Below, in pieces: positions 3,882 to 38,024 of a stretch of DNA of 64,000 bases. The DNA comes from Verrucomicrobiia bacterium (GTDB lineage: Bacteria; Patescibacteriota; Saccharimonadia; Saccharimonadales; JAGQNK01): positions 219,346-283,345 of the forward strand of contig DATHJY010000013.1 of NCBI GenBank assembly GCA_035489575.1, written 5' to 3'. The notes below the pieces were generated by a model. That model saw only the letters and a program-made list of their open reading frames with translations. It was not told the DNA's origin and did no database searches. The position numbers and the translations under genes were made by a program. Positions within the stretch are counted from its first letter, which is position 1. Each line of letters opens with the position of its first letter.

Positions 3882-5405
3882 CTATTTGCGGAACTTTATA
3901 TCGTCGCCGTAGTGTTTTTTTAGTCGAGCGCGAATAGACCCTGGGTGTCGGCCGAACAACTCCGTCAGCTCTTTGACACCCTTGCCATCATCGTAGAGTT
4001 TCTGCAGCTTATCATCGTCTTCTTGTACCCAGGGTGTATAGGCATTTGGATACTCTTCGCGCATTTTTGCTAGGCGTTCTCCCCACTCACCCTTTGGAGC
4101 TTTCTTGGGTTTTGGGTTCTTGGCCCGCTTGGCAGCATTTTCACGCAAGTGCTCAAACTGCTGAGCCGCTTCGGTAGCCCGATTCCGCAAAGTAGCTTCA
4201 ATATCTCTCGCCAGTGGGCTGACTTGCAGCGCCATGCGATTAATCCCCATAAGACTAAGGTCGTCTAGACGACGTACACGAGACAAGGCAACATACCCCA
4301 TGCCCTCTACAAAGGCCTTGCGCAGGTCAACCCGGGCAGCGTCTAGTGTCATGCCCTGGCTTTTATGAACGGTAATAGCCCAGGCTAGACGCAGCGGAAT
4401 TTGTGTCAAAGAAGCACGCTTTTTGTCACCGTCACGTAGCTCCCAGGTCTCTGTTGTCATGGTCACTTCTTTGCCGCTATGCAGCTGTACAACTGGAAAA
4501 CCACCAATTTCCTCGAACCCAACCACCATACCGAGCGACCCGTTCACGTAACGTTTTTCGGGGCTGTTGCGAATACACATAACCAACGCGCCTTCCTTTA
4601 GAACCAGCTGCTCTACGGCCAAGCAAGATCGTTTCAGTGTATCAACATAGTTTGCACTACCCGTGGTGTGCATTTCGAAAACATGTTCCTCGCCCTCCAG
4701 AGACCCCAGACGTCCTTCGTTTATAGTGTCGACGTCGACATTTACGGTGTGGAGCTCGGTAACCTCTATGTCCTCGGCCAGCTGCGCATCAACCCGCCCC
4801 AGCAGCTGTTCGGCATGTCTGCGACGCAGATCATTGGCCCGCATGGCATGTAAAATTTCCAGAAATGTATCGTCGTCCTGACGATGCTGCTCGGTCAAAT
4901 AGCACACAACCGGGTTTAGGTCGGTCCACGCCTGTGACTGCGTGACAAAGCTGCCCTGCTTTCCGTCACGCCTGTTAACGGGTGGCAACTGAAAAAAATC
5001 ACCACACAGAATAACCTGGATACCGCCAAATGGCTCGTCTTTGTTACGCACCTTGCGCGCAATGGCGTCAATCATGTCCAGCCGATAGTCGTGCAGCATA
5101 GACACTTCATCGATAATTAAAACGTCTGTTTTTTGGATAGTCTCTCGGCGACCTTTTGGCATGTGGTCCATAAAGCGAGGTGGTAGGTCATCCAACACAC
5201 CTATTCCGCTCCAGGAGTGGACAGTCGATCCGTTCAGGTGTGTTGCGGCCAGCCCCGTCGTTGCCGTAACGGCTACGTGCTTGCCGTCGTTTTTGGCCTC
5301 TTTTATAAAGCGATTCAGCACATATGTTTTGCCCGAACCAGCAGGACCGGTCAACAGTACACTGTTGCCAGCCAACATAATCTCGAGCGCCAAAACTTGA
5401 TCCAT
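3882..5405 (-). CDS. PIF1/RecD-like SF1 DNA helicase with a basic, HTH-like C-terminal tail
   Basis: 507 aa. Walker A LLTGPAGSGKTY, Walker B VLIIDEVSML, plus CGDFFQLPPV and TVHKSQGMT motifs. An extra C-terminal stretch of about 100 aa (KRAKNPKPKKAPK...GVKELTELFGRHPGSIRARLKKH) looks like a small DNA-binding helix-turn-helix. Confidence 0.85.
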   Translation of the reverse strand: MDQVLALEIMLAGNSVLLTGPAGSGKTYVLNRFIKEAKNDGKHVAVTATTGLAATHLNGSTVHSWSGIGVLDDLPPRFMDHMPKGRRETIQKTDVLIIDEVSMLHDYRLDMIDAIARKVRNKDEPFGGIQVILCGDFFQLPPVNRRDGKQGSFVTQSQAWTDLNPVVCYLTEQHRQDDDTFLEILHAMRANDLRRRHAEQLLGRVDAQLAEDIEVTELHTVNVDVDTINEGRLGSLEGEEHVFEMHTTGSANYVDTLKRSCLAVEQLVLKEGALVMCIRNSPEKRYVNGSLGMVVGFEEIGGFPVVQLHSGKEVTMTTETWELRDGDKKRASLTQIPLRLAWAITVHKSQGMTLDAARVDLRKAFVEGMGYVALSRVRRLDDLSLMGINRMALQVSPLARDIEATLRNRATEAAQQFEHLRENAAKRAKNPKPKKAPKGEWGERLAKMREEYPNAYTPWVQEDDDKLQKLYDDGKGVKELTELFGRHPGSIRARLKKHYGDDIKFRK

Positions 5406-5507
5406 AAGCCTCCGTAGTATACAGGGTTTAGCATGTGCGGTTTGTTGTAATTACGAGCCGCTCTTTTGCGACCATATAGTGTGCTTTCTGTTTAGGGAAA
5501 GCTACTG

Positions 5508-6098
5508 TCATGACTTTGGTCGAGGAGCGGGCCGATGCTTTTTGCGGTCGTGGTATGCCAGTTCTTTGCGGGACTGATCCAGCCGGTCTACGTAGGCGTC
5601 GAAGGTGTTGTACAGGTTAGAATAGTGCCCACTTGGTGCGAGCAGCTTCAGCAATTTACCTTCCTGCTCGAGGTATTCAACCAGACTATAAAAGTCACCG
5701 TCGCCAGAAACAATAATAGCCTTGTTGTAATGTGGCAGCTCTTTCATAGCCCACAGTACTAGGTCGGCATCTATGTTGCCTTTTGTTTTCTTATCCTCTT
5801 CTTTGTCGGGCCTGCCCTTAGAATCTGTTTTGTCGGACATCTCTGGGCGCGGACGAGTCATATCAAATGTAGGCTTCAGCACAATGGCATAGCCTGACTC
5901 GTGCAGCTGCACGTACATATCCTCGAACTCCGGAACATACCCGATGAACATCAGCGCCTTCGTCACGCCGTACTTCTCTGTCAAGTACACACGAAACTTA
6001 CGCCAGTCCATCTTCCAACCCAGTTTTTGCACACTGATATTTAGGTTTTGGCTATCTATAAAAGCAAATACTTGCTTTGGCTGAGTCTCTTTTCCCAT
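5508..6098 (-). CDS. NYN (LabA-like) domain protein, predicted nuclease
   Basis: 196 aa. The FAFIDSQNL start and IVSGDGDFYSLVEYLEQEGKLLKLL are the NYN/LabA acidic-residue motifs. A Lys/Asp/Glu-rich insert lies in the middle. It starts 12 nt after the upstream gene's stop. Confidence 0.8.
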   Translation of the reverse strand: MGKETQPKQVFAFIDSQNLNISVQKLGWKMDWRKFRVYLTEKYGVTKALMFIGYVPEFEDMYVQLHESGYAIVLKPTFDMTRPRPEMSDKTDSKGRPDKEEDKKTKGNIDADLVLWAMKELPHYNKAIIVSGDGDFYSLVEYLEQEGKLLKLLAPSGHYSNLYNTFDAYVDRLDQSRKELAYHDRKKHRPAPRPKS

Positions 6099-6110
6099 AT
6101 CCTAATGATA

Positions 6111-7127
6111 CTACATGACTTGCTTTAGTAAGTCTTCGTCATCGGGTGGCTTTAGCGGTCGCTTAGTCTTGATCTCGTAGCGTAGCCCCGTAACGGGTGA
6201 TTCCATGTAGTCATCGTTCAGGAGGTTAACAAATGTATTCAAATCTTTACCGTCCATAAGTATTATTGCCCCTGTATCGTCGGTCATGAGTGGAATTTCT
6301 ATCTCTTCTGCATGGTTCAGTAAATCTTCCTGTTTCATGGCCAGGGGGTCAATCTTTTGCAGCTTGTTTACCAGAGCTTTTTTGCCTTTTATCATTTCCT
6401 CGAACGAAGATTCGGCAAAACTCAGTTTGAAGTGCTCACCGATCAGCTTGATCTTGTCCAGGGCAATGCCGTACTTCTTGGCATTGTAGCCAAACAAAGA
6501 CTCTAGCTTGGCCTGATTAAATACGTACATATCTTGGTCTACCACCAGCAGTTGGTTGTCCTTGGGAATCTGCAATGATCCATCGGCATCAAACGGCACA
6601 AACCTGCCGCCACGCATCAGCCAGGCGGTGCTCCCTTTCATGACCATATTCGAAGACAAGGCTTTGATGATATAAAACGGCTTGGGTAAAGACGCGTGAG
6701 TACAGCGGGCCACTAAACCCTTGATACGCTTAAAGTCGTGTTCTTCCTCTACGAATGTTTCTATTTCGTGTTCTTGGGTTTTCAGCCAGTTCAGCGCCAT
6801 GCGAGCGTTTTCAACATTGCGGAGCTTGGTTCGTTGCAGAACGTTGCCTTCGGCCTCTCCCTCTTCGAACTCCCGAACTGTCAGGCCAGACTCAGCCCCC
6901 TCCAGCACAAACTCTAGCAGGTTGTCTACCAGCAGTGGTTCTAGCGATTTACGCAGGTCTTTGCTGACCGCCGCCCTGTACACGACATAGTTCTTGTTGA
7001 ATAGAAACAGCTCAATCACCAGCTCTTCCTTTATGGGCACGAGATTGTTGGCCCAGAGGAAAACGTCAGATTGCTCGTAGCTCTCGGCCGCTGGTGCAGC
7101 CGTTTCTTCGGTGGTAGGTTCTTCCAC
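6111..7127 (-). CDS. DUF4868-type (KwaB-like) protein, tentative
   Basis: 338 aa, soluble, with an acidic N-terminus. The central and C-terminal pattern (KRIKGLVARC...FYIIKALSSNMVMKG...RFVPFDADGSLQIPKDNQLLVVDQDMYVFNQAKLESLFGYN) resembles the DUF4868 family that includes Kiwa KwaB. This is by-eye recall and needs an HMM or structural check. Confidence 0.45.
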   Translation of the reverse strand: MEEPTTEETAAPAAESYEQSDVFLWANNLVPIKEELVIELFLFNKNYVVYRAAVSKDLRKSLEPLLVDNLLEFVLEGAESGLTVREFEEGEAEGNVLQRTKLRNVENARMALNWLKTQEHEIETFVEEEHDFKRIKGLVARCTHASLPKPFYIIKALSSNMVMKGSTAWLMRGGRFVPFDADGSLQIPKDNQLLVVDQDMYVFNQAKLESLFGYNAKKYGIALDKIKLIGEHFKLSFAESSFEEMIKGKKALVNKLQKIDPLAMKQEDLLNHAEEIEIPLMTDDTGAIILMDGKDLNTFVNLLNDDYMESPVTGLRYEIKTKRPLKPPDDEDLLKQVM

Positions 7128-9866: not shown

Positions 9867-10271
9867 ATGAGTAAAAATCAGACCAATCCACGCGTAGACA
9901 GTTACATAAATTCCCTGCCCGACTGGCAGTAAGCCATCTGTAAAAAGGTCCGCGACCTGGTACACCAAGCCGACCCAGAGGTGCAGGAAGAGATCAAACG
10001 GCGCATTTACCCGTACTTTACGCTCCAGGGCAACATCATTGCCCTCATGGGCACCAAAGACCACGTAAACGTCTTTATTTACGACCCTATCGCACCGGAT
10101 CCACAGGGCATCATAAACGCCGGTCAGGGCAACAAAACCGGTCGAGGCATCCAGATCTACCAGGGCGACCCCATCAACGAGCCTGCCCTCCTAAACCTCC
10201 TCAAAGCCGTAATAGCCAACAACCGAGCCGGCGGCTGGCGCAAACTAAGTCATAATATGTATGGGAAGTAG
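9867..10271 (+). pseudogene. DUF1801 (YdhG-like) gene interrupted by an in-frame TAA
   Basis: The ATG at 9867 reads MSKNQTNPRVDSYINSLPDWQ, then TAA at 9930-9932. The same frame continues AICKKVRDLVHQADPEVQEEIKRR... into the 9981-10271 track ORF. The joined sequence matches the DUF1801 pattern across the stop. Confidence 0.55.
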
Positions 10272-10288
10272 TCCTTAACAACCGCTAT

Positions 10289-10591
10289 CTAACTTTTGAA
10301 ACTGAAGATAAAATTATCTGAAGCTACTTCAAGCCCATTTTCTTTAATGTAATCTATTTTCTTGCTCTTAGAAGCACCTCTCAACTCAATAGGAAGTCTA
10401 GAGTTTATGTAAAAGAAGAGGTCTAAACTCTCTTGCTCTCGATTATCATCAACAGGAATAAGCCCGATTCTATTCCACAAATCTAAGTCAATTTTTTCGT
10501 CTAAGCAAAAAATAAACTTACCATTAAAATACATGTCGCCATACTCTTCATTGGTAAGCTTATTCTTCAGTCTAAAATGAAATTTCGCCAT
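10289..10591 (-). CDS. Small protein encoded downstream of, and overlapping, the HipA-like kinase gene (possible partner or antitoxin)
   Basis: 100-aa ORF in the same AT-rich island. Its start overlaps the kinase stop by 20 nt. The stretch LFFYINSRLPIELRG loosely recalls the FFxNLLP motif of the HipA N-terminal subdomain, but the spacing differs. Weak. Confidence 0.45.
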   Translation of the reverse strand: MAKFHFRLKNKLTNEEYGDMYFNGKFIFCLDEKIDLDLWNRIGLIPVDDNREQESLDLFFYINSRLPIELRGASKSKKIDYIKENGLEVASDNFIFSFKS

Positions 10592-11519
10592 CTAAAATTC
10601 CCTCGAGAATTTGTTGTCTTGTTACTAGAGAATAATACAGTAATTCCCTTCTCTTGTCGCTGTAGTCAATTAAGGGGTGGTGAGGCATCTTGATTATTTC
10701 TGCAGCAATCGAAAGACATTGTAATCTACGCCCCCACTCGGTATTTCTCTCTATATGTGACCAAATAATCTCAAATATATTTTTATCTTCACCAGCAGAA
10801 TCCCTAATCAAGGTGTATTTTTTGCCTAGTATATATCTTTTCTTAAATTGCTGTCGATCTCCGAGGTAGCGCTCAATGTCATCATCACTAAGCTCGAATA
10901 ATAGACTGCTACCGTGATCATAGAGGGGCGAAAAATGTCGCTTACTTACTAGGACACTTGGGTCAATCGCACGCTGACCCTTACGTATGGTAAAATGCTC
11001 AGATACTCCCCAGTTCTCATGATGCCGGTCCATGTTACCAATCCAGGCGTCAAATACAATCATTTCCGCAAAACTATCTAATATATCTTCAGGCGAATAA
11101 TAACGTGCTCGTATGCGCTTTTCTATTTCCTCTAATGTGAGTGAATCGGATGGTGTATTTACAATCCTCTGGCCGTAAGTAATCTCATAGTCTTTCGGGA
11201 ATATATTTCTCGCAAGTGTGGCAATCGGTAATAATTCTTCCTTGTTGCCAAGGTGCTGCTTAACAACTTTTATGATATTGGGGGGTATCTCTTTTATAGT
11301 TACTTCTTGGCAACGAACTTTTGCGATCTGTGCCAGTTTAGACGCGATCAATTCGCTAAACACCTCGCGAGAGTTGTGCCGAGAGAACTTAAGTAGAAAT
11401 GTTTGATTAGTCCTCTCATGAACAACAGTAACACGTGGCCGTGAGCCACCTACAACTTGAATTTTTAAAACCGGCTTGAAGGGCGGAAAGCTAAGCTTCT
11501 TTATTAAGTAATGTTTCAT
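10572..11519 (-). CDS. HipA/HipT-like serine/threonine kinase core (lacks the HipA N-terminal subdomain)
   Basis: 315 aa. A Gly-rich loop VVGGSRPRV lies about 20 aa from the N-terminus. The catalytic motif FDAWIGNMDRHHENWGV and FSPLYDHGSSL fit the HipA-family kinase pattern. The gene is visibly AT-rich relative to its flanks. Its ATG lies 29 nt inside the 3' end of glyQS. Confidence 0.7.
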   Translation of the reverse strand: MKHYLIKKLSFPPFKPVLKIQVVGGSRPRVTVVHERTNQTFLLKFSRHNSREVFSELIASKLAQIAKVRCQEVTIKEIPPNIIKVVKQHLGNKEELLPIATLARNIFPKDYEITYGQRIVNTPSDSLTLEEIEKRIRARYYSPEDILDSFAEMIVFDAWIGNMDRHHENWGVSEHFTIRKGQRAIDPSVLVSKRHFSPLYDHGSSLLFELSDDDIERYLGDRQQFKKRYILGKKYTLIRDSAGEDKNIFEIIWSHIERNTEWGRRLQCLSIAAEIIKMPHHPLIDYSDKRRELLYYSLVTRQQILEGILDGEISF

Positions 11520-12846
11520 GTAGCTCGTTGTAGCTAATGCGCTCCTGCTTGGTGGTGTCGCGGTTGCGGACGGTTACGGTGTTGTCTTCTAGGGTGTCGA
11601 AGTCGATGGTTACACAGTATGGGGTGCCGATCTCGTCTTGGCGGCGATACCGTTTACCTATGTTGCCGTTGTCGTCCCACATGACGTTGCCGATTTCTTT
11701 CTTTAGGCTCTTGTAGACTTCCTGAGCTTTTTCTACCAGTTCTGGTTTGTTCTTTAGGAGTGGGCTGACTGCAACTTTGTAGGGGGCTAGCTTGGGATCT
11801 AGTTTGAGGACAATGCGCTTTTCGCCGTTAATTTCTTCTTCGTGATAGGCATCTACCAACACAGCCAGGAACATGCGCCCCACACCCACGGATGATTCGA
11901 TAACGTAAGGGGTAAAACGTTCCTTGGTCGCGTCGTCGAAATACTGCAAGTCTTTGCCGCTGACCCGCATGTGATTTCCTAGGTCAAAATCTGTACGGTT
12001 ATGGGTGCCCCACAGCTCTTTGAAGCCCTGCGGAAACTTAAAGTAAATGTCATGGGCCGCTGCGGCATAGTGAGCTCGTTCGTCCTCGCCGTGTTCATGC
12101 CAGTCCAGATTAGATTCTTCTATACCAAGTCGCTCTGTCAAAAACTTCCAGGCAAAATCACGCCACTGCTCGTAGACATCTTTTTGATCGGCAGGACGAA
12201 TGAAATACTGCATTTCCATTTGTTCGAGCTCGCGGACACGAAAGATAAAATCACGCGGGCTTATCTCGTTTCGGAAGGCCTTTCCAATTTGGGCCACACC
12301 AAACGGCAGCTTGGCGCGCATGGTCTCGCGTACGTTTTCGTAGTTGGTAAAAATCGAACCAGCCGTCTCCGGGCGCAAATAGGCTACTGATGAATCGTCC
12401 TCGATAGGACCTACCCACGTTTTCATCATCATGTTGTAGAAACGCGGCTCGGTCAGTTCCTTCTTTCCACAGGTTGGGCACGCCTTGTCTTTCAGCAGCT
12501 CTTTGAGTTCATCCAGGTTAGTAGAGTCTGTGCCAGCAAGATGATCAGCCCGGTGACGTGCACCACAGTTTTTACAGTCCACGAGCGGATCGGTAAATCC
12601 CGCGATGTGACCACTTGCCTCCCATAGCTTAGGGTTCTGGATAATCGCACCGTCCACACCAAATATGTTGTCGCTCTCGCGGACCATAGCGTTCCACCAC
12701 GCTTGCTTGATATTATTGGCCAACTCTACGCCCAAAGGCCCATAGTCCCAGAATCCAGCCAAACCACCATAAATTTCGCTGGCCTGAAATACAAACCCAC
12801 GCCGCTTACATAGCGAAACAATGTCATCCATTTTTACATCACTCAT
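11491..12846 (-). CDS. glyQS: Glycine--tRNA ligase (dimeric class II type)
   Basis: 451 aa. RRGFVFQASEIYGGLAGFWDYGPLGVEL, FRNEISPR and the ESSVGVGRMFLA class II motifs are typical GlyQS. Confidence 0.95.
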   Translation of the reverse strand: MSDVKMDDIVSLCKRRGFVFQASEIYGGLAGFWDYGPLGVELANNIKQAWWNAMVRESDNIFGVDGAIIQNPKLWEASGHIAGFTDPLVDCKNCGARHRADHLAGTDSTNLDELKELLKDKACPTCGKKELTEPRFYNMMMKTWVGPIEDDSSVAYLRPETAGSIFTNYENVRETMRAKLPFGVAQIGKAFRNEISPRDFIFRVRELEQMEMQYFIRPADQKDVYEQWRDFAWKFLTERLGIEESNLDWHEHGEDERAHYAAAAHDIYFKFPQGFKELWGTHNRTDFDLGNHMRVSGKDLQYFDDATKERFTPYVIESSVGVGRMFLAVLVDAYHEEEINGEKRIVLKLDPKLAPYKVAVSPLLKNKPELVEKAQEVYKSLKKEIGNVMWDDNGNIGKRYRRQDEIGTPYCVTIDFDTLEDNTVTVRNRDTTKQERISYNELHETLLNKEA

Positions 12847-12899
12847 ATTGATGGTGATTATATCTGATTGGATCAGAGGTGTACAGCTCGCGCCGAGGG

Positions 12900-13595
12900 C
12901 TATATTCGAATTTGCTGGCGGAGTAGATTCTGAGCCAGCTTGAGGTCATCAACCACACATTTCTGTGCGTCAGCCACCTGCCGCAGCACCAGTGGGTCTT
13001 CTGCGGCATACCCAAGTCGTAACAATTTTATGTGGTTGGCCGTGAATGGCCCGCCCTCCTGCTGGCGAAAGCTCATAGATTCAAAGTCGAACAAGTAAGC
13101 CTGGCCTGCCTCCAGCTGGCGACCACTTGAGTCAGTCTGCAGGTTGGGCATATGACCAGTAACGTTCAGTAGCTGCATACAAAACCACAGGTCCACCAGC
13201 TCAGGCGACAGGCCGGCGTCGTTCAGTCCAGCCAGGGTTCGCTGCAAGATCAAGAAATATTCTTCGCCTGCTGCGTCTTCTGTTACGCGGTTGATCCGGC
13301 GCAAAAAGTCATAGGCCAGCATGGTCCGGACAATGTCCTGCACGATAGCGCCGTAGTGCGTTATCAAGCGCGACGACACCAAACTACCGATCTCTCCCCT
13401 TCCCGGCAGTACGGTTATATCACTGACGCTCAAAAGCTCTATGCCGCCAGCCAGTTTTGACCGTGGACGTCGCACTCCCTTGGCAATGACTTTCAGCTTG
13501 CCGTGATCAGGACTCAGAATAGTTAAGATCCGATCAGCCTCCTGGAAGTCGGTTCGAGTAAGCACGATGCCGCTGGTGGTCAGTTGATTTTTCAT
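12900..13595 (-). CDS. recO: DNA repair protein RecO
   Basis: 231 aa. The N-terminal OB-fold pattern GIVLTRTDFQEADRILTILSPDHGKLKVIAKGVRRPRSKLAG is typical of RecO. Confidence 0.85.
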   Translation of the reverse strand: MKNQLTTSGIVLTRTDFQEADRILTILSPDHGKLKVIAKGVRRPRSKLAGGIELLSVSDITVLPGRGEIGSLVSSRLITHYGAIVQDIVRTMLAYDFLRRINRVTEDAAGEEYFLILQRTLAGLNDAGLSPELVDLWFCMQLLNVTGHMPNLQTDSSGRQLEAGQAYLFDFESMSFRQQEGGPFTANHIKLLRLGYAAEDPLVLRQVADAQKCVVDDLKLAQNLLRQQIRI

Positions 13596-13960
13596 GCGGT
13601 GCTGTTAACCGCTTGTACAAGTTCTCGCAGCGATGTGGCAGGTTTATACAAGTGCCGCGTTATGCCGAGCTGCCGAGCCACTGGCGCGTCCAAATCGAGG
13701 CCGCCCATTGGTACCCAGGTATGGGCTATGACGGGGATAGTTTGCCACTCTGGATAAGACCGATATTCGTATAAAAACTCGACGCCAGAATGCCCGGGCA
13801 GTTGCAGCTCCAGAATCACCGCCTGGGGCTGGAACTTATCGGCCGCAAAAATAGCCGCCTGTGCGCTGTGGCACCCCCGCACTACATGGCCAGCCGCTTC
13901 TAGCGCCGCCGTATATATGGTGGCTAGCACGGCGTCTGGCTCTAGCAGCAAAACTCTCAC
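13592..13960 (-). CDS. Stand-alone receiver (REC) domain protein with Glu at the phospho-acceptor position
   Basis: 122 aa with CheY-like topology. It has VLLLEPD (acidic pocket), AVILELQLPGHSG where DxxMPG is expected (Asp to Glu), PVIAHT (conserved Thr) and LYKP (conserved Lys). It overlaps both neighbouring genes by 4 nt. Confidence 0.7.
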   Translation of the reverse strand: MRVLLLEPDAVLATIYTAALEAAGHVVRGCHSAQAAIFAADKFQPQAVILELQLPGHSGVEFLYEYRSYPEWQTIPVIAHTWVPMGGLDLDAPVARQLGITRHLYKPATSLRELVQAVNSTA

Positions 13961-14643
13961 GATACCAGCTGCAGCTGGCTGCTAGGGTGCAAAGTCGCGG
14001 CCAGGCCCGTTAAGCTGTTGTGGCGCGCCACACGCAAAGGTGCCGACATAGACCGAAGCAAGGTGTCGGCAATAAAGATACCCGCGCCAGCACCACTGCT
14101 GGCACTAGGCAGCGGCTGACGCACGTCACCATACAGCGCCCGGCCCCACCGAAAGACATCAGTGCTCAGACCCGCCTGGTTGTCGAATACGCCCGTTACC
14201 AGGCCCGTGCTGCTTCTGTGGGCCGCCAGAATCACCTGGTGCCGTTTGTCCTGAGGAGTCTGTGCCTCAATAAGGCTGTACCCCAGCAGCAACAGTGCCG
14301 ACTGCAGACTTTCGTTGTGGGCCATGACCGGGCCGTACTTGCCGCTCAGCCGAACCTCGACATCGCAGTTGTGGTCCTTGGCAAACTGCTCCAGCTGGTG
14401 CGCCGTGTCGGTCAGCACCGAAGATACCGATACCGGCTCTAGTTTTAGCAACGCCTGGGTCTGTCGATCAGCGCTCAGCAAAAAGGCGTCGACATAAGAC
14501 AACGCTGTCTCCGCAACAAACTGAACATGCGACAAATGTGCGGCGTCAGCAGACGACACACCTAATTCTGCCCGGCGGGCGATTTGCAATAAGGGCACTT
14601 TCAGCTGTTCAGCCAGCGCCCTTAGTAAACGCTCATCTGCCAA
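13957..14643 (-). CDS. Cytoplasmic histidine-kinase-like protein with degenerate H-box and N-box
   Basis: 228 aa with no TM segment. LAEQLKVPL aligns with the SHELRTPL H-box, putting Glu in the His position. The downstream layout LEPVSVSSVL...VEV...VMAHNESLQSALLLLGYSLIEA...FDNQAGL...GAGAGIFIADTLL follows the DHp plus HATPase_c order, but the N-box Asn is not evident. Aligned by eye. Confidence 0.45.
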   Translation of the reverse strand: MADERLLRALAEQLKVPLLQIARRAELGVSSADAAHLSHVQFVAETALSYVDAFLLSADRQTQALLKLEPVSVSSVLTDTAHQLEQFAKDHNCDVEVRLSGKYGPVMAHNESLQSALLLLGYSLIEAQTPQDKRHQVILAAHRSSTGLVTGVFDNQAGLSTDVFRWGRALYGDVRQPLPSASSGAGAGIFIADTLLRSMSAPLRVARHNSLTGLAATLHPSSQLQLVS

Positions 14644-14693
14644 AGAATAAACCCTCCTTGAGTACTTTGGATTATATACCCAAAAGAGGTGTC

Positions 14694-14857
14694 TATAGCA
14701 ACCCCTGTCTAAAAATTACTTCCGGAACAGATGCCTCGGTGAGTCAGAATTTTCTAGACTGAGTGAGGCATATCCATAGATACGTTGAGCGAAGGCTGGG
14801 AGATTCTGGCCGCCGAGGCGCTGGACCGGGAGTGAGATTTGGACAGGGGTTGCTATA
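14694..14857. repeat. Perfect 16-bp inverted repeat closing a ~165-nt intergenic element (candidate structured RNA or MITE-like element)
   Basis: tatagcaacccctgtc (14694-14709) is the exact reverse complement of gacaggggttgctata (14842-14857). There is an inner hairpin, atgcctc (14731-14737) with gaggcat (14765-14771). The element sits between two minus-strand genes. Confidence 0.4.
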
Positions 14858-14858
14858 C

Positions 14859-15605
14859 TTATGGCACAAAGGACAAATTTGGCAAAATGATATTGTTAAA
14901 ATCATTTATAAATGTCTGTGACAGTGTAGAAACACGGATAGTCTTGTCGCGCAGCGGCAACAAAACGGCACTGCCATTCACGCCTTTCTCTATCTCGCCG
15001 TTCACCCGCGTGCCAAGAACACTCGGTACCTTGGCTAGCGAAAACGGCTGCACCTGCACGGTTCCCTTTTTTGCAGCAGAATCGTAGCCGTTCAAAACTC
15101 CGTTATAGGGCTGTTGCAATACCTCTAGCTTGAGAGCAAAGGCTGTGCCAGACGACAGGCCAGGCACGAAGTCTGGATGAAAATGGCCAACGATCAAACC
15201 CCCAGAACGACCCGCCTCGTCTATATAAGCCGCCCAGGTCTTGGGGTATAGCATTTCAACCGAGCCATAGACAGTAGGACCCTTGTAGTCCTTAAAGGGA
15301 TTCTTTTCACGCTCGGCAAATTCTTTTTCTTTGGTGGTTTCTACCTCTTTTTTGGCGATAGTCACTGCGGCAGCGGCTTTTTGGTCTGAATTATTTTTGT
15401 AGTCCAGTCTCTCGCTGGAAGCCCATATAGCAAATGCCCCGGTCCCACACGACAACAGGAAAAGCACCACAACAGGAATAATCAGCCAGTTAAAATGCCT
15501 TCGTCTTCGAGACGCGGCCATACCTGGCTGCTGGCCAGGATACGGCAGCTGGCCGCCACTAGGCGGTAACCCCGGCTGCTGCGGGTATGGAGACTGCGGA
15601 TTCAT
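14859..15605 (-). CDS. Single-pass membrane protein with a Pro/Gln-rich N-terminal tail (hypothetical)
   Basis: 248 aa. MNPQSPYPQQPGLPPSGGQLPYPGQQPG is followed by RRRRH, then the TM helix WLIIPVVVLFLLSCGTGAFAIW, then a domain of about 170 aa with no motif I recognise. Confidence 0.5.
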   Translation of the reverse strand: MNPQSPYPQQPGLPPSGGQLPYPGQQPGMAASRRRRHFNWLIIPVVVLFLLSCGTGAFAIWASSERLDYKNNSDQKAAAAVTIAKKEVETTKEKEFAEREKNPFKDYKGPTVYGSVEMLYPKTWAAYIDEAGRSGGLIVGHFHPDFVPGLSSGTAFALKLEVLQQPYNGVLNGYDSAAKKGTVQVQPFSLAKVPSVLGTRVNGEIEKGVNGSAVLLPLRDKTIRVSTLSQTFINDFNNIILPNLSFVP

Positions 15606-15634
15606 ATAACTAATGCTAACTCAGAACCCCTAGC

Positions 15635-16177
15635 CTACGCAAGCTGCTCTTTAGGGGTATTAGTGTTGTCGTAGATATACAGATACACCCCTTTTTTATC
15701 TTTTGTCGCTTCTTTGCCTGGTACCTTAAAAGTAAAGCTGGCAAGTTTGACTTGTTGTTCGGGATAGTTCTGAATAATCTTTTTATCCAACTTTTTCATA
15801 TATCTGTCTAACAGAAATACGTATATTCCGTCTGCCCGGGGCCACACATGGGACCAATAATTACCCCATATAATCTTTACATGACTGCGGTATTTGTAGG
15901 TACGAATATAACTGACCAATACCAGGAGCGGGTTAAGCTCGTAACCAATTACTCGCAGCCCTTGTTCGGCGGCGGCCAACAGCATAGTGCCATCACCGCT
16001 GCCTAGCTCTAGGAGCGTCTGGCCCTTTTCGAGCCCCAGGAGCTCTAGTGCCGCTTGTTTTTGCGGCTTGAGCGTAGGCAGATAAGGTGCCCCGAAAAAT
16101 ATAACAAACCCAAACAGTAATATGACCCATGCAACCACCAGATATAGCACCAACATCATACGCTTCCAGCCTCCCAA
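15635..16177 (-). CDS. Class I SAM-dependent methyltransferase with an N-terminal membrane anchor
   Basis: 180 aa with the TM helix MMLVLYLVVAWVILLFGFVIFFG and SAM motif I LLELGSGDGTMLLAAAEQGLRVIGYELNP. Confidence 0.7.
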   Translation of the reverse strand: MGGWKRMMLVLYLVVAWVILLFGFVIFFGAPYLPTLKPQKQAALELLGLEKGQTLLELGSGDGTMLLAAAEQGLRVIGYELNPLLVLVSYIRTYKYRSHVKIIWGNYWSHVWPRADGIYVFLLDRYMKKLDKKIIQNYPEQQVKLASFTFKVPGKEATKDKKGVYLYIYDNTNTPKEQLA

Positions 16178-16365
16178 TTGGCTTTTATTTTTGCCACCTT
16201 ATTTTCTGCTTGCTTCAGATATGTTTCTAGTTCTTTTGTAATCTTCATGCCACGCTCGTACAGAGCCACAGCCTCGTCAACGTCCAGACCGCCGGTCTGT
16301 AGCTTGGCCAGGGTATCTTCCAGCTCTATACTGAGCGCCTTGTAATCTATCTTAGCCTGTGCCAT
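16156..16365 (-). CDS. xseB: Exodeoxyribonuclease VII small subunit
   Basis: 69 aa. LEDTLAKLQTGGLDVDEAVALYERGMKITKELETYL is the XseB helical hairpin pattern. It lies directly downstream of xseA. Confidence 0.85.
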   Translation of the reverse strand: MAQAKIDYKALSIELEDTLAKLQTGGLDVDEAVALYERGMKITKELETYLKQAENKVAKIKANWEAGSV

Positions 16366-16384
16366 TTGTGCCTATTATAGCTCA

Positions 16385-17515
16385 TCATTCGAGGACTATG
16401 CTCGTTATAGTCGCCCCTGCCTGGCCATCTTTGAATTGCACAGAAACTGTTTGATCTTTTTTGAGCTGCTTAACAGAGCTAAGTGTTTTATTACCTACCC
16501 GCACCAGCACATACCCACGTTGCAGTGCAGCCATCGGGCTCAGCGCACTCAACACTTGCTGCCTGAGGGTAAGCAGCTGCCGCTCGTCAACCAAGAGCTG
16601 TCCGACAAGCGTAGTCAGGTTGCCCACGCTGTCCTTCAGAAGCTGCTGCGCATCACTGACGTTTCGCTGCAGATAAGTACCCAGCGTGACCTGTGCGTCG
16701 TTCAATTGCTGCAGCACGTGCCGCTTGTCTGGCACCAGCAATTGTGCCGCGTTGGATGGCGTACTTGCCCGCTGATCAGCCGCCAGCTCCGCCAGACTCA
16801 TGTCTACCTCGTGCCCAATGGCAACCAAGGTCACAACCCGGCTGCCGGCTACTGCCCGCGTAACCTGCTCTGTGCTAAATGCAGCTAGATCTTCTGCACT
16901 ACCGCCACCACGAGTGATCACTATCACGTCTGCCGGGTTCTCGTGTGTATTGAAGTAATCCAGTGCGGCAACGATCTGCCCAGGCGCCACTTCGCCCTGC
17001 ACCTGCACATCTGCCAGCTCTATATCTACCCCGCCCCAGCGTTCCTGCATGATCTTGATAAAGTCATGGTAGGCAGCGGATTCGCCAGAAGTTATCAGAC
17101 CGACCCGCTTTGGCGGATACGGTAGCGACCGCTTACGGCTGTCGTCAAACAAGCCTTCGGTTCGTAGCTTTGCTTCTAGTAAGGCTGCTGCCCGGCGCAG
17201 TGATCCCTCACCCACAGGCTGCAAGGATTGAACCGTAATGCTAAACCCATAAAGCGGATGGAGTCGAGGCGTGCCAGTTACCTGTATCATTAATCCATCC
17301 TCTAGCGGTCCTGACAGCTGGTACACCGTACCAAAAAATTTTACGTTGGCGTTCTCGTCTTTTAAGTCAAAATATACCCATCTGTTCTTACTGACGCGAA
17401 AGTTCGCCAGCTCGCCCACTATCGTAACTATCGGATAGGCATATTCAATCGTCTGGTTAAAGACAGCTACAAAATCCGAGACCGTCAGGACAAGGTCAGA
17501 GCTCATCAGTATCAC
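16385..17515 (-). CDS. xseA: Exodeoxyribonuclease VII large subunit
   Basis: 376 aa. It has an N-terminal OB fold (LTVSDFVAVFNQTIEYAYPIVTIVGELANFRVSKNRWVYFDLKD) and the catalytic region ITRGGGSAEDLAAF. Confidence 0.9.
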   Translation of the reverse strand: MILMSSDLVLTVSDFVAVFNQTIEYAYPIVTIVGELANFRVSKNRWVYFDLKDENANVKFFGTVYQLSGPLEDGLMIQVTGTPRLHPLYGFSITVQSLQPVGEGSLRRAAALLEAKLRTEGLFDDSRKRSLPYPPKRVGLITSGESAAYHDFIKIMQERWGGVDIELADVQVQGEVAPGQIVAALDYFNTHENPADVIVITRGGGSAEDLAAFSTEQVTRAVAGSRVVTLVAIGHEVDMSLAELAADQRASTPSNAAQLLVPDKRHVLQQLNDAQVTLGTYLQRNVSDAQQLLKDSVGNLTTLVGQLLVDERQLLTLRQQVLSALSPMAALQRGYVLVRVGNKTLSSVKQLKKDQTVSVQFKDGQAGATITSIVLE

Positions 17516-18566
17516 GCTCTAAATGGTCTTCTATCTGGGGCTGAGCGTGCAAGGTGCGATGATAAAAGAAATAGCCGGGAATCAGCTGTACGGCCATGCT
17601 GAGAATACGGTACATCACCGTCACTGGCAGGCTTAAGGCTGCCGGTATACCACCCGCTGCCAACACCGCAGTCATGAGTGCCTCATATATACCAATGCCG
17701 CCAGGCAATATAGAAATAAGTCCAGCAAAATTGGCCACAGCGTAGGCCAAAATAACCGCTCCGATATTCACCCACTGGCCAAAGGCAACGTACACGGCGT
17801 AAATGGTCATAAGCTCTGCCACAACGCTCAGGAGCGCCCACCACAAAGGCCGGTTGAGGGCCGTAATATCACGCCTAATTTGCATGTAGTTCTCGTGCAG
17901 CTCGGTAAAGGCTTTTTTAGCCCGCGTCACACTGATGGTTTCGGGGTGCTTTGGCCGAAAGATATGAATAACGCCGTTAATAAGTTTTGTCAGAAAAACA
18001 AAAAACGTATTGATACGTGACTTACTGCCAACAATAAAAGCGGCCACAAAAGTCAGCACCAAGATAAGCGTACTGAGAATGCCGGCTATCAAAATAGCAA
18101 AGTCGTTGGCCTTGCCGCCTATAGCCAGTGCGCATAGCCCCACAAACAACAATATTTGCACCGAGACAAATATCAGAATAAAACGGAATATCTGCACCAG
18201 CGTGGCCTTGGCTGTCGATATATTTTCATCACGCAGCCGTATATTGATATACGAAAAGCCACTTACGCCCCCACTGGGAAAGACGGTGTTTACAAAGTTC
18301 AGTTCCAGCGCCAAGCGCATCATAGAGCGCGTACGAAACCTGGTGCCAACAGCCCGAAACAGCCCTTGGTACAGTTTTGCCTGCGCAAAGTAGTTGAGTG
18401 TCTGCGTGAGCGGTATGAGCAGAAGATACCACAGCTCTACCTCACCAAAATTTTTATAGGTCTCGGCAAGTTGGCGCCGAACCGCGTAAGTGAGTCCCAC
18501 GAGCGCCACTATAGTAAAGATATTTAACGCGGTTTTCCATCTCCGCGAACGAAGTTTATCGGTCAT
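17496..18566 (-). CDS. Lysylphosphatidylglycerol-synthase TM-region / flippase-like (UPF0104) membrane protein
   Basis: 356 aa with about 8 TM helices. The RRWKTALNIFTIVALVGLTY start and the SILPGGIGIYEALM motif are typical of this family. Confidence 0.7.
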   Translation of the reverse strand: MTDKLRSRRWKTALNIFTIVALVGLTYAVRRQLAETYKNFGEVELWYLLLIPLTQTLNYFAQAKLYQGLFRAVGTRFRTRSMMRLALELNFVNTVFPSGGVSGFSYINIRLRDENISTAKATLVQIFRFILIFVSVQILLFVGLCALAIGGKANDFAILIAGILSTLILVLTFVAAFIVGSKSRINTFFVFLTKLINGVIHIFRPKHPETISVTRAKKAFTELHENYMQIRRDITALNRPLWWALLSVVAELMTIYAVYVAFGQWVNIGAVILAYAVANFAGLISILPGGIGIYEALMTAVLAAGGIPAALSLPVTVMYRILSMAVQLIPGYFFYHRTLHAQPQIEDHLERDTDEL

Positions 18567-20138: not shown

Positions 20139-21206
20139 TTAGTAATCGTCCGGAACGTCACTTGCCGTCAACATGTAACTGTCATCTATTGTTGACCTGC
20201 TCTTGCTGACTACTACATTCAATTCATCGGCATATCGATACCCGTGCATAAACTCGCGTGCAAACGCACCTGCGATAGCATTCTGTAGTTCTTCGCCGTC
20301 CTCGCCGTAATCCTGCGGGAAAAAGATTGCAAGTTGTGCCGTCCGGCGATCGCGCTCTATGTCATACTTGGCATCGACCTTCAGCCGCTTGCCATTCCAC
20401 TCAATGTCGCAATACCCGCCTTCGTTTGCCTGAATAGCCTCATATATATACATATGAAGGTTAACTCTTGCCTGGACCGCATCGATAGCTAAGCGCTTTT
20501 CTGGGATATAAGCCCCCGCATTCTTGTCCAATACCCATGCTTCTTCAACCTCAAACCCCCGAACCACGCCGCGAAGCACATTGGCCTCCGAGTAAGCCCT
20601 GTCTGGCACTTCGTCGCTGGCCAGCCACGTCGTGTCAATTTTCACGTCCAATACTGGATCGCGCGCCTCTACCCTTTCGCGAGCTGGGGACCTGCGAGCC
20701 ATATCAGTCAAAAAGACTTCTTGAAAACCAGCAGCAGTTGCCTTCTCTTTCAGGCCACCTATCCAGGTGGTCGAACTGTCGTATCTTTGGTCTCGGACCG
20801 CATCGACGCGCAGATCAAAACCACCGTCCTCTCTTTTGACAGCCCAGCCTTTTGCTTTCACAGTTTCAGTGGTCAGACCATGTTTATTAGCAAAGTCAAT
20901 TAGCTCCGGGTAGTGATACCGCTCGTCATAGCTCCTCATCTCATCCATAAGTGAGTGATGACCTCCCACGGTTGCGCCATAAGAGCGAAGATCCCTAGGT
21001 GAAACTACCACTATAGGATCCCCTTCAACTAGATGTATTTCGGTATATGGCCCTGCGCCAGCAGGCGCATCACGAAATCGATCTAAAGCCTGGTGTATCA
21101 GTCCTACTTCGCTAGCGGAATCGGGCAAAGCTTCGTCATCCCAGGCAGGCGTAAACTGTGACTCGTCGCCGGATACTACTGTTTCATTTAAGGTGTTTGT
21201 TGTCAT
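20139..21206 (-). CDS. Hypothetical acidic protein (orphan)
   Basis: 355-aa ORF, Asp/Glu-rich, with no TM segment and no motif I recognise. Its stop codon abuts the rpmA stop codon with no spacer (taa/tta at 20136-20141). Confidence 0.5.
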   Translation of the reverse strand: MTTNTLNETVVSGDESQFTPAWDDEALPDSASEVGLIHQALDRFRDAPAGAGPYTEIHLVEGDPIVVVSPRDLRSYGATVGGHHSLMDEMRSYDERYHYPELIDFANKHGLTTETVKAKGWAVKREDGGFDLRVDAVRDQRYDSSTTWIGGLKEKATAAGFQEVFLTDMARRSPARERVEARDPVLDVKIDTTWLASDEVPDRAYSEANVLRGVVRGFEVEEAWVLDKNAGAYIPEKRLAIDAVQARVNLHMYIYEAIQANEGGYCDIEWNGKRLKVDAKYDIERDRRTAQLAIFFPQDYGEDGEELQNAIAGAFAREFMHGYRYADELNVVVSKSRSTIDDSYMLTASDVPDDY

Positions 21207-21261: not shown

Positions 21262-21687
21262 TTATACCGGGATACCAAGATGGTGCTTTATGCGTGCCAC
21301 CACGTCGGCAATAACAACTTGAGATTTTACCAGATAGTCATCTACGCCCATGCCTTCTGCACGCTGGCGGTCAGACTCCTGGCTGAGTGCGGTGAGCATG
21401 ATGACCTTGATATTGGTGGTCTCTGGGGTATTGCGCAGGATATCTAATACGTCAAAGCCGCTGACTTTGGGCATCATAACATCTAGAATGATCAAGTCTG
21501 GCTTGTAATCCAGAGCGGCAGCCAGCGCTTCTTCGCCATTGGGGACACGACGGGTGTCAAAACCTTCTGATTCAAGACGAACTTTATAAACTTTTGCAAG
21601 CGTGTCGTCATCCTCGACAAGCAAAATCTTTTTAGGATGAGCCGGGGCTGGTGCGGGTGCTGAGGTTTGTTGATCCATATCGCTCAT
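21262..21687 (-). CDS. Single-domain response regulator (CheY-like, canonical Asp)
   Basis: 141 aa with KKILLVEDDD, DLIILDVMMPKVSGFDVL, IMLTA and DDYLVKS, all canonical receiver motifs. There is no output domain. Confidence 0.85.
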   Translation of the reverse strand: MSDMDQQTSAPAPAPAHPKKILLVEDDDTLAKVYKVRLESEGFDTRRVPNGEEALAAALDYKPDLIILDVMMPKVSGFDVLDILRNTPETTNIKVIMLTALSQESDRQRAEGMGVDDYLVKSQVVIADVVARIKHHLGIPV

Positions 21688-37079: not shown

Positions 37080-38024
37080 CTAGCGAATACCGGCTATCAA
37101 GATTGCAGCAAAAGCTACCTTTGTCAGCACACCTATGACGGCGTAGTTGCGCTCTACTACCGTGTAGCTGGCGCTTGTACCACTCTTCTTGAATTGTTGG
37201 CGTTGATTCCAGGCAATAAGACTAAACCCAGCCAAGCTTGAGGCATAGAGAGCGTATACGTACCATGGCGAGCGAACAGCTCCATAGACTACGGTCGACA
37301 CAGCATAAGCTGCCAGCAGCACCCAAGGCAATACCCCGCTGAACAAACTCACCGCGTAAGCACTCCAAACAGGCCTATCGCTGGCATTATTTTGGCGCTC
37401 TGCAACCAGACCAAGCAAACAAGTTACGAGCATCAGACCGCCCATAAGCTTCAGTACGAATAGATCCTGAACGCCACTCAAAAGCGCAATAGTCTCTACC
37501 ATCAGGGCCGCCGTAACACCTAGATCCAGCCATCGGTATGGAACCATCCGCGTATTACGCACGTAGGTGCTGTAGGCTTGCTCCAGTTTTGTGATATACA
37601 GCAGAGGCAACACAGCAGATACCAGCATGGTTGCGACTACGAGCCATCGCACCTCGATGTCGTATAGCACGTGCACGGCTGGTGCGAATACAGTAGTGTC
37701 TATGCTTGCCAGATCGTCACGAGCCCAGAGACCAACAGTAGTTTGGTAACTGCTTGAACCCATCATAACTCCCGCCAGTAGGGCAAGCAGTACAAACGCA
37801 ACTGCTGATACAATATGCCATTTGCGTAGACTCAGCATACTTGGCGCTGATTTTGAGGTTGTTGTTACCACGCTTGCGGATACTGACCTTGTAGCTTTCT
37901 TTGTTGCGGGCTTTTTAGTCGCTGCAGCTTTGGTAGTTTTGGTTTTTGCCTTGGTAGATTTCTTTGTAGTTGTAGCCATGTAAAGGAGTATACCAGAATT
38001 TTGAGAGGGAATATCCCCTCTCAA
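37080..38024 (-). CDS. Heliorhodopsin-like 7-TM protein with a Lys/Thr/Ala-rich N-terminal tail
   Basis: 314-aa ORF (an alternative ATG at 37979 gives MATTTKKSTKAKTKTTKAAATKKPATKKA...). I count seven hydrophobic helices, a long TM1-TM2 loop, YRWLDLGVTAALMVETIALLSG in TM3 (compare the RWVEY region of heliorhodopsin 48C12 as I recall it), and a Lys in mid-TM7 (ERNYAVIGVLTKVAFAA), where the retinal Schiff-base Lys sits. Aligned from memory. Confidence 0.55.
   Translation of the reverse strand: MRGDIPSQNSGILLYMATTTKKSTKAKTKTTKAAATKKPATKKATRSVSASVVTTTSKSAPSMLSLRKWHIVSAVAFVLLALLAGVMMGSSSYQTTVGLWARDDLASIDTTVFAPAVHVLYDIEVRWLVVATMLVSAVLPLLYITKLEQAYSTYVRNTRMVPYRWLDLGVTAALMVETIALLSGVQDLFVLKLMGGLMLVTCLLGLVAERQNNASDRPVWSAYAVSLFSGVLPWVLLAAYAVSTVVYGAVRSPWYVYALYASSLAGFSLIAWNQRQQFKKSGTSASYTVVERNYAVIGVLTKVAFAAILIAGIR

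Follow-up and report, generated by a model that had tools for sequence, protein, structure and literature searches.

What does a histidine kinase and receiver pair do when neither partner has a residue to phosphorylate, and why does such a pair stand directly in front of the gene for a recombination mediator? The question is raised by three consecutive genes on the minus strand of a 64,000-nucleotide (nt) stretch of contig DATHJY010000013.1 (assembly GCA_035489575.1, positions 219,346 to 283,345), here called the window. They encode pHK, a 228-amino-acid (aa) pseudo-histidine kinase, pRR, a 122-aa single-domain pseudo-receiver, and RecO. As judged from the sequences and from the structural model of pHK, neither pHK nor pRR is capable of His-to-Asp phosphotransfer: the pair lacks the residues on which autophosphorylation, phosphotransfer, phosphatase activity and the Mg-dependent phosphorylation of Asp depend. 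We consider it moderately probable that the dead pair and recO are a real, conserved phosphorylation-independent module, in which a pHK-pRR complex acts by binding, perhaps with RecO.

A preliminary description of the window had called the three open reading frames (ORFs) and a 4-nt overlap at each of their two junctions. These calls were exact, the overlaps reading GTGA and ATGA on the minus strand. The features of the unit are the following.

12900-13595, minus strand: recO, ORF of 231 aa with ATG start, third gene of the unit
13592-13595, minus strand: ATGA, 4-nt overlap of the pRR stop and the recO start, read from the sequence
13592-13960, minus strand: pRR, ORF of the 122-aa single-domain pseudo-receiver, GTG start
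13808-13810, minus strand: GAG codon of pRR Glu51 in the phospho-Asp column (RR468 Asp53, CheY Asp57), from alignments
13937-13942, minus strand: codons of pRR Glu7-Pro8, in place of the Mg2+-binding Asp-Asp, from alignments
13957-13960, minus strand: GTGA, 4-nt overlap of the pHK stop and the pRR start, read from the sequence
13957-14643, minus strand: pHK, ORF of the 228-aa pseudo-histidine kinase, TTG start, first gene of the unit
13960-14448, minus strand: CA-like (Bergerat-fold-like) domain of pHK, residues 66-228, with degenerate ATP motifs, from the CpxA alignment and column statistics
14461-14640, minus strand: DHp-like hairpin of pHK, residues 2-61, helix 1 with the degenerate H-box A11-E12-Q13-L14-K15-x-P17-L18, from the model
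14608-14610, minus strand: GAA codon of pHK Glu12 in the phospho-His column, from the alignment with CpxA SHELRTPL

The receiver pRR and its active site

pRR matched the Pfam family Response_reg (PF00072) with 39.9 bits against a gathering cut-off of 30.2, over profile positions 1-110 of 111, and by Pfam it is a bona fide receiver. Its public annotation is "response regulator" only. The closest solved sequence relative found by phmmer was RR468 of Thermotoga maritima (3dge_C, E 6.9e-9), which has the length of pRR, 122 residues, and likewise consists of one receiver domain. In the phmmer alignment AVILELQLPG of pRR lies over LIVLDIMMPV of RR468, with Glu51 on Asp53, and LLLEPDAV lies over LLVDDSAV, with Glu7-Pro8 on the Mg-binding pair Asp9-Asp10. 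An alignment of pRR with CheY, Spo0F and PhoB was made with MAFFT, the three reference sequences being entered by hand; it gave the same column assignment, and the positions of CheY T87 and K109 are kept. Both alignments agree with the exchange of Asp for Glu beside a retained Thr and Lys that had been noted before, and the loss of the Mg pocket (Asp-Asp to Glu-Pro) goes beyond that first reading.

Columns were counted in two sets, one of 74 orthologues drawn from genome loci and one of 121 sequences, the window protein and 120 listed database relatives. The phospho-Asp column (CheY D57) holds Glu in 74/74 orthologues and in 120/121 sequences of the second set. Glu-Pro occupies the columns of CheY D12-D13 in 73/74 orthologues, and Pro was found in 118/121 of the second set; CheY, Spo0F and PhoB all have Asp at this second position. 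Thr or Ser at the CheY T87 column and Lys at the K109 column are each present in 74/74 orthologues, and Tyr at the Y106 column in 54/74. The profile match and the Thr/Ser and Lys switch of a receiver are present, and the phospho-Asp and the acidic pair are missing. On these columns pRR is a pseudo-receiver, recognised as a receiver and devoid of the residues for phosphotransfer.

A signature of the family's own lies in the beta3-alpha3 loop and alpha3, where H57, G59, E61, E65, R67, S68, Y69 and W72 are invariant or nearly so (pattern HxGxEFLYExRSYxxW). These two elements and the active-site loops are the best-conserved parts of pRR; conservation reaches 0.79 to 0.84 in the active-site loops and alpha3, compared with 0.58 overall. 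The 120 relatives listed range from 114 to 168 aa, and each consists of one domain only.

A canonical single-domain receiver with DDD, D, T and K in place (Pfam 7e-24) is encoded in the same window at 21262-21687 (minus strand). Since the same genome encodes this canonical receiver, the substitutions are specific to the pRR family and not a genome-wide drift. The ORF after it (355 aa, 20139-21206, minus strand) had no Pfam match. No HisKA or HATPase_c domain was seen among the window proteins scanned.

The kinase-like protein pHK and its relatives

A search of pHK against Pfam returned no family. When 30 relatives were scanned singly, HisKA appeared weakly in 6/30 (best E 0.064) and HATPase_c in none, and the NCBIfam kinase models gave pHK 14-15 bits against cut-offs above 330. 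A profile built from 30 pHK sequences matched CpxA (E 9.5e-5) with the H-box in register, ALAEQLKLPL of pHK (family pattern LAEQLKxPL) lying over DISHELRTPL of CpxA. This alignment pairs Glu12 with the phospho-His, as the preliminary description had proposed, Gln13 with the catalytic acid, Lys15 with Arg, and Pro17, which is invariant, with the HisKA Pro; the T/N column of the H-box holds V/L16. The top-scoring CpxA chain (4biz) has E, not H, at the phospho-His column of the printed alignment, which confirms the register of the pHK H-box.

An AlphaFold model of pHK built on the alignment (mean pLDDT 75.8) has one helix at residues 2-30 and another at 34-61, and after them a domain of mixed alpha/beta structure; pLDDT falls below 50 at residues 172-184, roughly where an ATP lid would be expected. 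When the model was compared with the PDB by Foldseek, the best 50 matches were all histidine-kinase-type chains, from ZraS (2e-11) to CpxA (8e-9), and included HK853, CpxA, GacS and the non-canonical DivL and RetS. The DHp plus HATPase_c layout suggested earlier is recovered in this hairpin and CA-like fold.

The motifs of the CA-like domain are degenerate. The N-box Asn column holds S, A, V, T or G, and the N-box helix (110-126) of the family lacks any conserved Asn, in line with the earlier remark that this Asn is not evident. DNQxG of pHK lies over DDGPG of CpxA, and the G1 Asp column is S, G, T or A in most of the wider representatives. A partial G2 box, GAGxFxAD, is left. pHK has no sensor and no transmembrane region, and its best-conserved segment is DHp helix 1 (0.70 versus 0.60 overall). 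Of the marks of a histidine kinase, the fold is there; scores above the Pfam cut-offs, the phospho-His, the N-box Asn and the G1 DxGxG are not. By model and motifs, pHK is kinase-like in fold and descent, yet lacks every catalytic hallmark that a sequence can reveal. It fits the definition of a pseudo-histidine kinase, a protein with the architecture kept and the catalytic functions, by prediction, lost.

A collection of 5.8 billion proteins holds 541 relatives of pHK, and an exhaustive profile search returned 825 representatives at 50%-identity clustering (E <=1e-3), 253 of those below 1e-30. The 120 relatives listed are 221-262 aa long and without a Pfam domain; where named they are called 'hypothetical protein', with one 'K+-sensing histidine kinase KdpD'. 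From species-representative genomes 80 loci were retrieved, whose labels are almost all Saccharibacteria, Saccharimonadia or Saccharimonadales. Deposited proteins 100% identical to the window ORFs are found at NCBI under 'MAG TPA: Verrucomicrobiae bacterium' (locus tags VK694_). The Verrucomicrobiae label of the public record is probably a binning or taxonomy error, because the gene content, like almost every relative, indicates Saccharibacteria.

The His column of pHK holds E in 79/80 loci. In 151 sequences, the top 150 representatives and the window protein, it holds E 121 times, Q 10, D 9, H 3, L 2, A 1 and R 1. The three His-bearing members have a near-canonical H-box, AHDLRLPL, and a CA domain without the Asn. 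Glu-Pro and Glu persist in the receivers paired with them, and recO comes next with a 4-nt overlap in both contigs long enough to show it. Conservation of Glu across relatives, which the preliminary description had named as a check, therefore holds for the receiver and is incomplete for the kinase. The idea that one phosphomimetic residue at both sites defines the pair has to be given up, since the kinase column varies and only the receiver Glu is universal. The column counts make the receiver Glu the fixed feature; the residue on the kinase side would have drifted after loss of function.

All catalytic residues are gone from the pair, as would be expected of decaying two-component remnants without a current function. 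The conservation data effectively refute such decay. The ORFs are intact in all loci examined, many non-catalytic residues are invariant, 825 cluster representatives exist, and the pair is retained despite the strong genome reduction that marks the phylum Saccharibacteria. Over about 70-80 genomes the mean identity to the window protein is 48% for pHK, 48% for pRR and 49% for RecO. The conservation of pHK and pRR equals that of RecO, and since the three diverge at the same rate, decay is excluded. pHK and pRR are, by these comparisons, under strong purifying selection, which falls mostly on DHp helix 1, the active-site loops of pRR and its alpha3.

The conserved residues also bear on the idea that the pair signals through another covalent modification or a ligand, which we regard as quite improbable. 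The candidates are a transition-metal site of E7, D9, E51 and H57 in pRR, possibly bridged to E12 of pHK, phosphorylation of pHK H142 or H208, and Glu methylation. The receiver H57 is invariant (120/121) and, with E7, D9 and E51, would lie around the former Mg site, a geometry proposed from sequence, but E12 of pHK can be replaced by L, A or R. H142 and H208 of pHK are about 90% conserved in close relatives, yet become Y, F or R in divergent members, and pHK lacks the ATP-binding Asn. A small S-adenosylmethionine (SAM)-methyltransferase gene is conserved two genes upstream, but it is split from pHK by one gene and a never-overlapping intergenic gap.

Gene order and the junction with recO

By its profiles the product of the third gene is a standard RecO: it scored 80.9 bits with the equivalog TIGR00613 (cut-off 48.7) and matched RecO_N (1.9e-18) and RecO_C (2.2e-5) of Pfam. 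Downstream of recO lies glyS, for glycyl-tRNA synthetase, an assignment made through the Pfam match of its homologue in related loci. Upstream of pHK there is a 215-nt gap, then the genes for the membrane protein up248 and a small methyltransferase, then xseB and xseA.

Nine local window proteins were compared with the 80 loci by tblastn. The order xseA, xseB, methyltransferase, up248, pHK, pRR, recO, glyS was found almost everywhere, and pHK, pRR and recO were consecutive in every locus long enough to show them. The coupling to recO, part of the preliminary description, is real and conserved: where both are present recO is directly downstream, with the overlap in 59/72. The junctions are as follows.

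xseA/xseB: 65 loci, 6 with a 4-nt overlap (9%), median 4 nt
xseB/methyltransferase: 57 loci, 13 with a 4-nt overlap (23%), median 0
methyltransferase/up248: 55 loci, 1 with a 4-nt overlap (2%), median 44 nt
up248/pHK: 74 loci, 0 with a 4-nt overlap, median gap 108 nt
pHK/pRR: 77 loci, 14 with a 4-nt overlap (18%), median +1
pRR/recO: 72 loci, 59 with a 4-nt overlap (82%), median -4
recO/glyS: 64 loci, 0 with a 4-nt overlap, median 501 nt

The spacing of pHK and pRR is mostly -4 to +6, and the pRR/recO junction has four 1-nt overlaps in addition. Between up248 and pHK there is always an intergenic gap, with no overlap of any kind (0/74). The 4-nt overlap of pRR and recO is kept down to about 40% protein identity, and its frequency at the other junctions is 0-23%. 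These junction statistics delimit pHK, pRR and recO as a conserved expression unit, with pRR/recO as the tightest joint. At the level of gene layout the conserved stop/start overlap demonstrates that pRR and RecO are made from one message. Loose junctions with the order kept were seen in the loci L003, L012 and L040 (pRR-recO gap 106-152 nt) and in L032 (pHK-pRR 581 nt).

Operon packaging in a compact, syntenic genome could also place a real phosphorylation-independent module before recO, with a function unrelated to RecO (e.g. cell-envelope, cell-cycle or host-interaction signalling). We hold this to be possible, though not probable. The order from LPG synthase and xseA/xseB to glyS is kept across the phylum, conserved adjacency being the norm here, and stop/start overlaps occur at unrelated junctions too, as in the 23% of xseB/methyltransferase. 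No RecO-related motif was found in pHK or pRR by the Pfam, NCBIfam and PADLOC scans. On the other hand, the 82% of loci that keep the pRR/recO overlap are far above any other junction examined, gaps bound the unit on both sides, and the pair and recO are never apart in the 69-72 loci that have both.

Two sequence elements lie 5' of pHK.

14652-14659, minus strand: Shine-Dalgarno-like AAGGAGGG, 8 nt 5' of the pHK TTG, read from the sequence
14671-14701, minus strand: promoter-like TTGCTA, a 17-19 nt spacer and TATA(TA)AT, by eye

The element of pHK is the only strong Shine-Dalgarno (SD) sequence of the unit, and none precedes pRR or recO. SD statistics were dropped as a proof of translational coupling, as SD-like motifs are rare before all genes of these loci (1-12% for 5-mers). 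The candidate pHK promoter was not called by the consensus promoter scan, and promoter and terminator scans gave counts not above those in shuffles. The Rfam scan of 10000-18000 returned a sub-threshold miRNA match only.

A palindromic insertion of 162 nt (14697-14858) lies directly 3' of the up248 stop and ends in the promoter-like region of pHK, its right end providing the TTGCTA of the -35-like box. It has arms at 14694-14730 and 14821-14857 with perfect 16-nt terminal inverted repeats (TATAGCAACCCCTGTC), and it folds as a long hairpin (minimum free energy -84 kcal/mol, z = -6.4). The insertion is cleanly missing in L192, the closest relative, with 96% identity in pHK. It occurs in one copy in the window and the metagenome matches to the 16-mer are single and scattered, which does not support the status of a repeated miniature inverted-repeat transposable element. 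The hairpin was rejected as a conserved regulatory RNA, the insertion being missing in the closest relative and most loci.

The neighbouring up248 (14859-15605, minus strand) begins with a disordered stretch rich in Pro and Gln; a long helix (42-101) follows, apparently membrane-spanning in its N-terminal part, and an alpha/beta domain forms the C-terminus. In fold this last domain comes closest to PsbP/CyanoP (Foldseek E 4e-4); no Pfam domain was found, and there are about 190 relatives. As a membrane-anchored, PsbP-like protein up248 was tried as a sensor partner of pHK and discarded: a gap always precedes pHK, and the two are never fused or overlapping.

A known defence system was likewise discarded for the pair, PADLOC giving no match for pHK and for pRR only the receiver-like N-terminus of the SduA model. 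Elsewhere in the window, a HipA-like kinase gene (10572-11519, minus strand) lies directly after glyS and was assigned by PADLOC to PDC-M03A, a candidate family of defence genes (E 3e-30); its start as called overlaps the end of glyS by 29 nt, and a small ORF (10289-10591, minus strand) accompanies it. A cluster at 3882-7127 (minus strand) may be a defence islet: 3882-5405 encodes a PIF1-like helicase, 5508-6098 a protein with an NYN domain, and 6111-7127 a KwaB-like protein (Pfam KwaB 2e-11, PADLOC KwaB 9.5e-14), with no KwaA recognised. Also on the minus strand are a heliorhodopsin gene (37080-38024, Pfam 5e-31) and the gene of a 1830-aa Kelch-repeat protein (56165-61657), which adjoins that of a 732-aa protein with a CBM_4_9 carbohydrate-binding domain (61744-63942). 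The latter two are probably surface proteins.

Proposed mechanism and known systems

A phosphorylation-independent module, as first suggested for this locus, is the natural reading of two proteins without the residues for His-to-Asp phosphotransfer. By fold and alignment pHK derives from a HisKA-type kinase reduced to the DHp hairpin and the CA domain, with loss of the phospho-His, the adjacent acid, the phosphatase motif (H-E-x-x-T/N to E-Q-L-K-V/L) and the N-box Asn for Mg-ATP. In pRR the phospho-Asp has given way to Glu and one member of the Mg-binding Asp pair to Pro, the Thr/Ser, the aromatic residue and the Lys being kept. A DHp-mediated dimer of pHK would dock pRR in a complex of the kinase-receiver type, and the Glu51 carboxylate, held by Thr/Ser81 and Lys106, may keep the receiver active-like, the pair acting by binding. 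That a Glu at the Asp site might partly mimic phosphorylation, perhaps by contacts with T and K, has been discussed (PMC12632262). In the last and weakest step, the pRR/recO overlap would set the ratio of the two products, and the module may act with or on RecO-dependent recombination.

Several points weigh against this mechanism. The pHK-pRR complex is a predicted one. Covariation between pHK and pRR (mutual information with average product correction, 74 pairs only and DHp helix 1 near-invariant) gave scattered top pairs, none at the canonical interface of DHp helix 1 and receiver alpha1, and alpha1 of pRR, the main docking helix of canonical pairs, has average conservation (0.50). Q, D, H, L, A and R are allowed at the Glu site of pHK, which argues that the residue has no obligatory chemical role, and ATP binding by the CA-like domain was judged from motifs only. 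For some pseudo-receivers a phosphomimetic role of Glu has been disproved (PMC12632262). The proposed link to RecO, whether physical or functional, is deduced purely from gene organisation. The whole block of LPG synthase, xseA, xseB, methyltransferase, membrane protein, pHK, pRR, recO and glyS is syntenic across the phylum, so that gene order alone is weak evidence for such a link, and what sets recO apart is the conserved overlap only. The missing SD before pRR and recO is uninformative, given the rarity of SD-like motifs throughout these loci.

In a stronger form of the argument the pair would be a dedicated partner of RecO, a phosphorylation-free two-component scaffold controlling or assisting RecA loading in Saccharibacteria, e.g. 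in natural transformation or repair. We think this unlikely. Its interface would be the receiver alpha3 surface HxGxEFLYExRSYxxW or the metal site of E7, D9, E51 and H57, and if true, it would be the first two-component-derived module wired straight into a recombination mediator.

The favoured reading, a conserved module acting by binding, can be set beside known kinase-receiver systems. Chains of HK853 rank with the best matches to the pHK fold, and among solved proteins RR468 comes closest to pRR in sequence. Unlike pHK-pRR, the HK853-RR468 pair has all catalytic residues and performs phosphotransfer, and HK853 has a membrane-anchored sensor part.

DivL of Caulobacter, a protein with PAS sensor domains and a membrane anchor, is also among the structural matches of pHK (4q20_B, E 7.8e-10, Foldseek). 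According to the DivL paper (PMC4211667), DivL is a pseudo-histidine kinase whose DHp-CA core binds the single-domain receiver DivK and does not phosphorylate it. DivL differs from pHK in that the His site is Tyr and the protein reads the phosphorylation state of a normal Asp receiver (PMC4211667). pRR, unlike DivK, is predicted not to be phosphorylatable, so a pHK-pRR complex could not report a phospho-state.

PsmA of Streptomyces venezuelae resembles pHK in its HisKA-like H-box with Glu for His, in a His-site residue that varies in orthologues (D, Q, V and Y in PsmA) while the following residues are conserved, in degenerate ATP-binding motifs and in the absence of the D/E-x-x-T/N phosphatase motif (PMC12963549). 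PsmA acts by protein binding (PMC12963549), the role proposed here for pHK. It is, however, a large hybrid whose REC Asp, residue 1276, is kept, and it binds DivIVA at hyphal tips and is confined to Streptomycetaceae (PMC12963549), whereas the 228 aa of pHK amount to a bare DHp-CA core, its co-degenerate receiver is a separate protein, and recO is a partner gene. For pRR, the plant PRR/TOC1 clock proteins and Rim15p of Ascomycetes are comparable, matching PF00072 with Asp replaced by Glu; they are eukaryotic and fused to output domains (PMC12632262). In contrast, pRR is stand-alone, is encoded beside a matching pseudo-kinase gene and has its own invariant alpha3 signature.

Glu pseudo-kinases and Glu pseudo-receivers are thus kinds with precedent. 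Pseudo-kinases and pseudo-receivers in general are common, though little is understood of their mode of action. About 0.9% of HisKA domains have no His and about 2% of receivers no Asp, Glu being the commonest substitute at the Asp site (PMC12632262). Among 20 bacterial atypical regulators reviewed, CmrT and FrzS are the only non-orphans (PMC12632262). In the same 2025 review the mechanisms that activate pseudo-receivers in bacteria are said to "remain a mystery", and the characterised ones to be orphans in nearly every case (PMC12632262). A literature search with Saccharibacteria, recO and receiver/kinase terms found nothing on a pHK-pRR-recO module. Judged by the literature found, three things appear to be new: the pairing, in one operon, of a bare DHp-CA pseudo-kinase with a stand-alone pseudo-receiver of its own, the two being dead alike; the conservation of this dead pair across the sampled Saccharibacteria lineages; and a conserved translational joint to a recombination mediator.

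With 228 aa and 122 aa, pHK and pRR are a natural minimal system whose two members are both dead. The pair is kept across the sampled Saccharibacteria, in very small genomes where retained genes are usually needed, and it has a defined candidate output, RecO. Being minimal, conserved and provided with a candidate output, it is tractable for asking what a kinase-receiver interface does without phosphorylation, and it may point to an unrecognised control layer of recombination in Patescibacteria.

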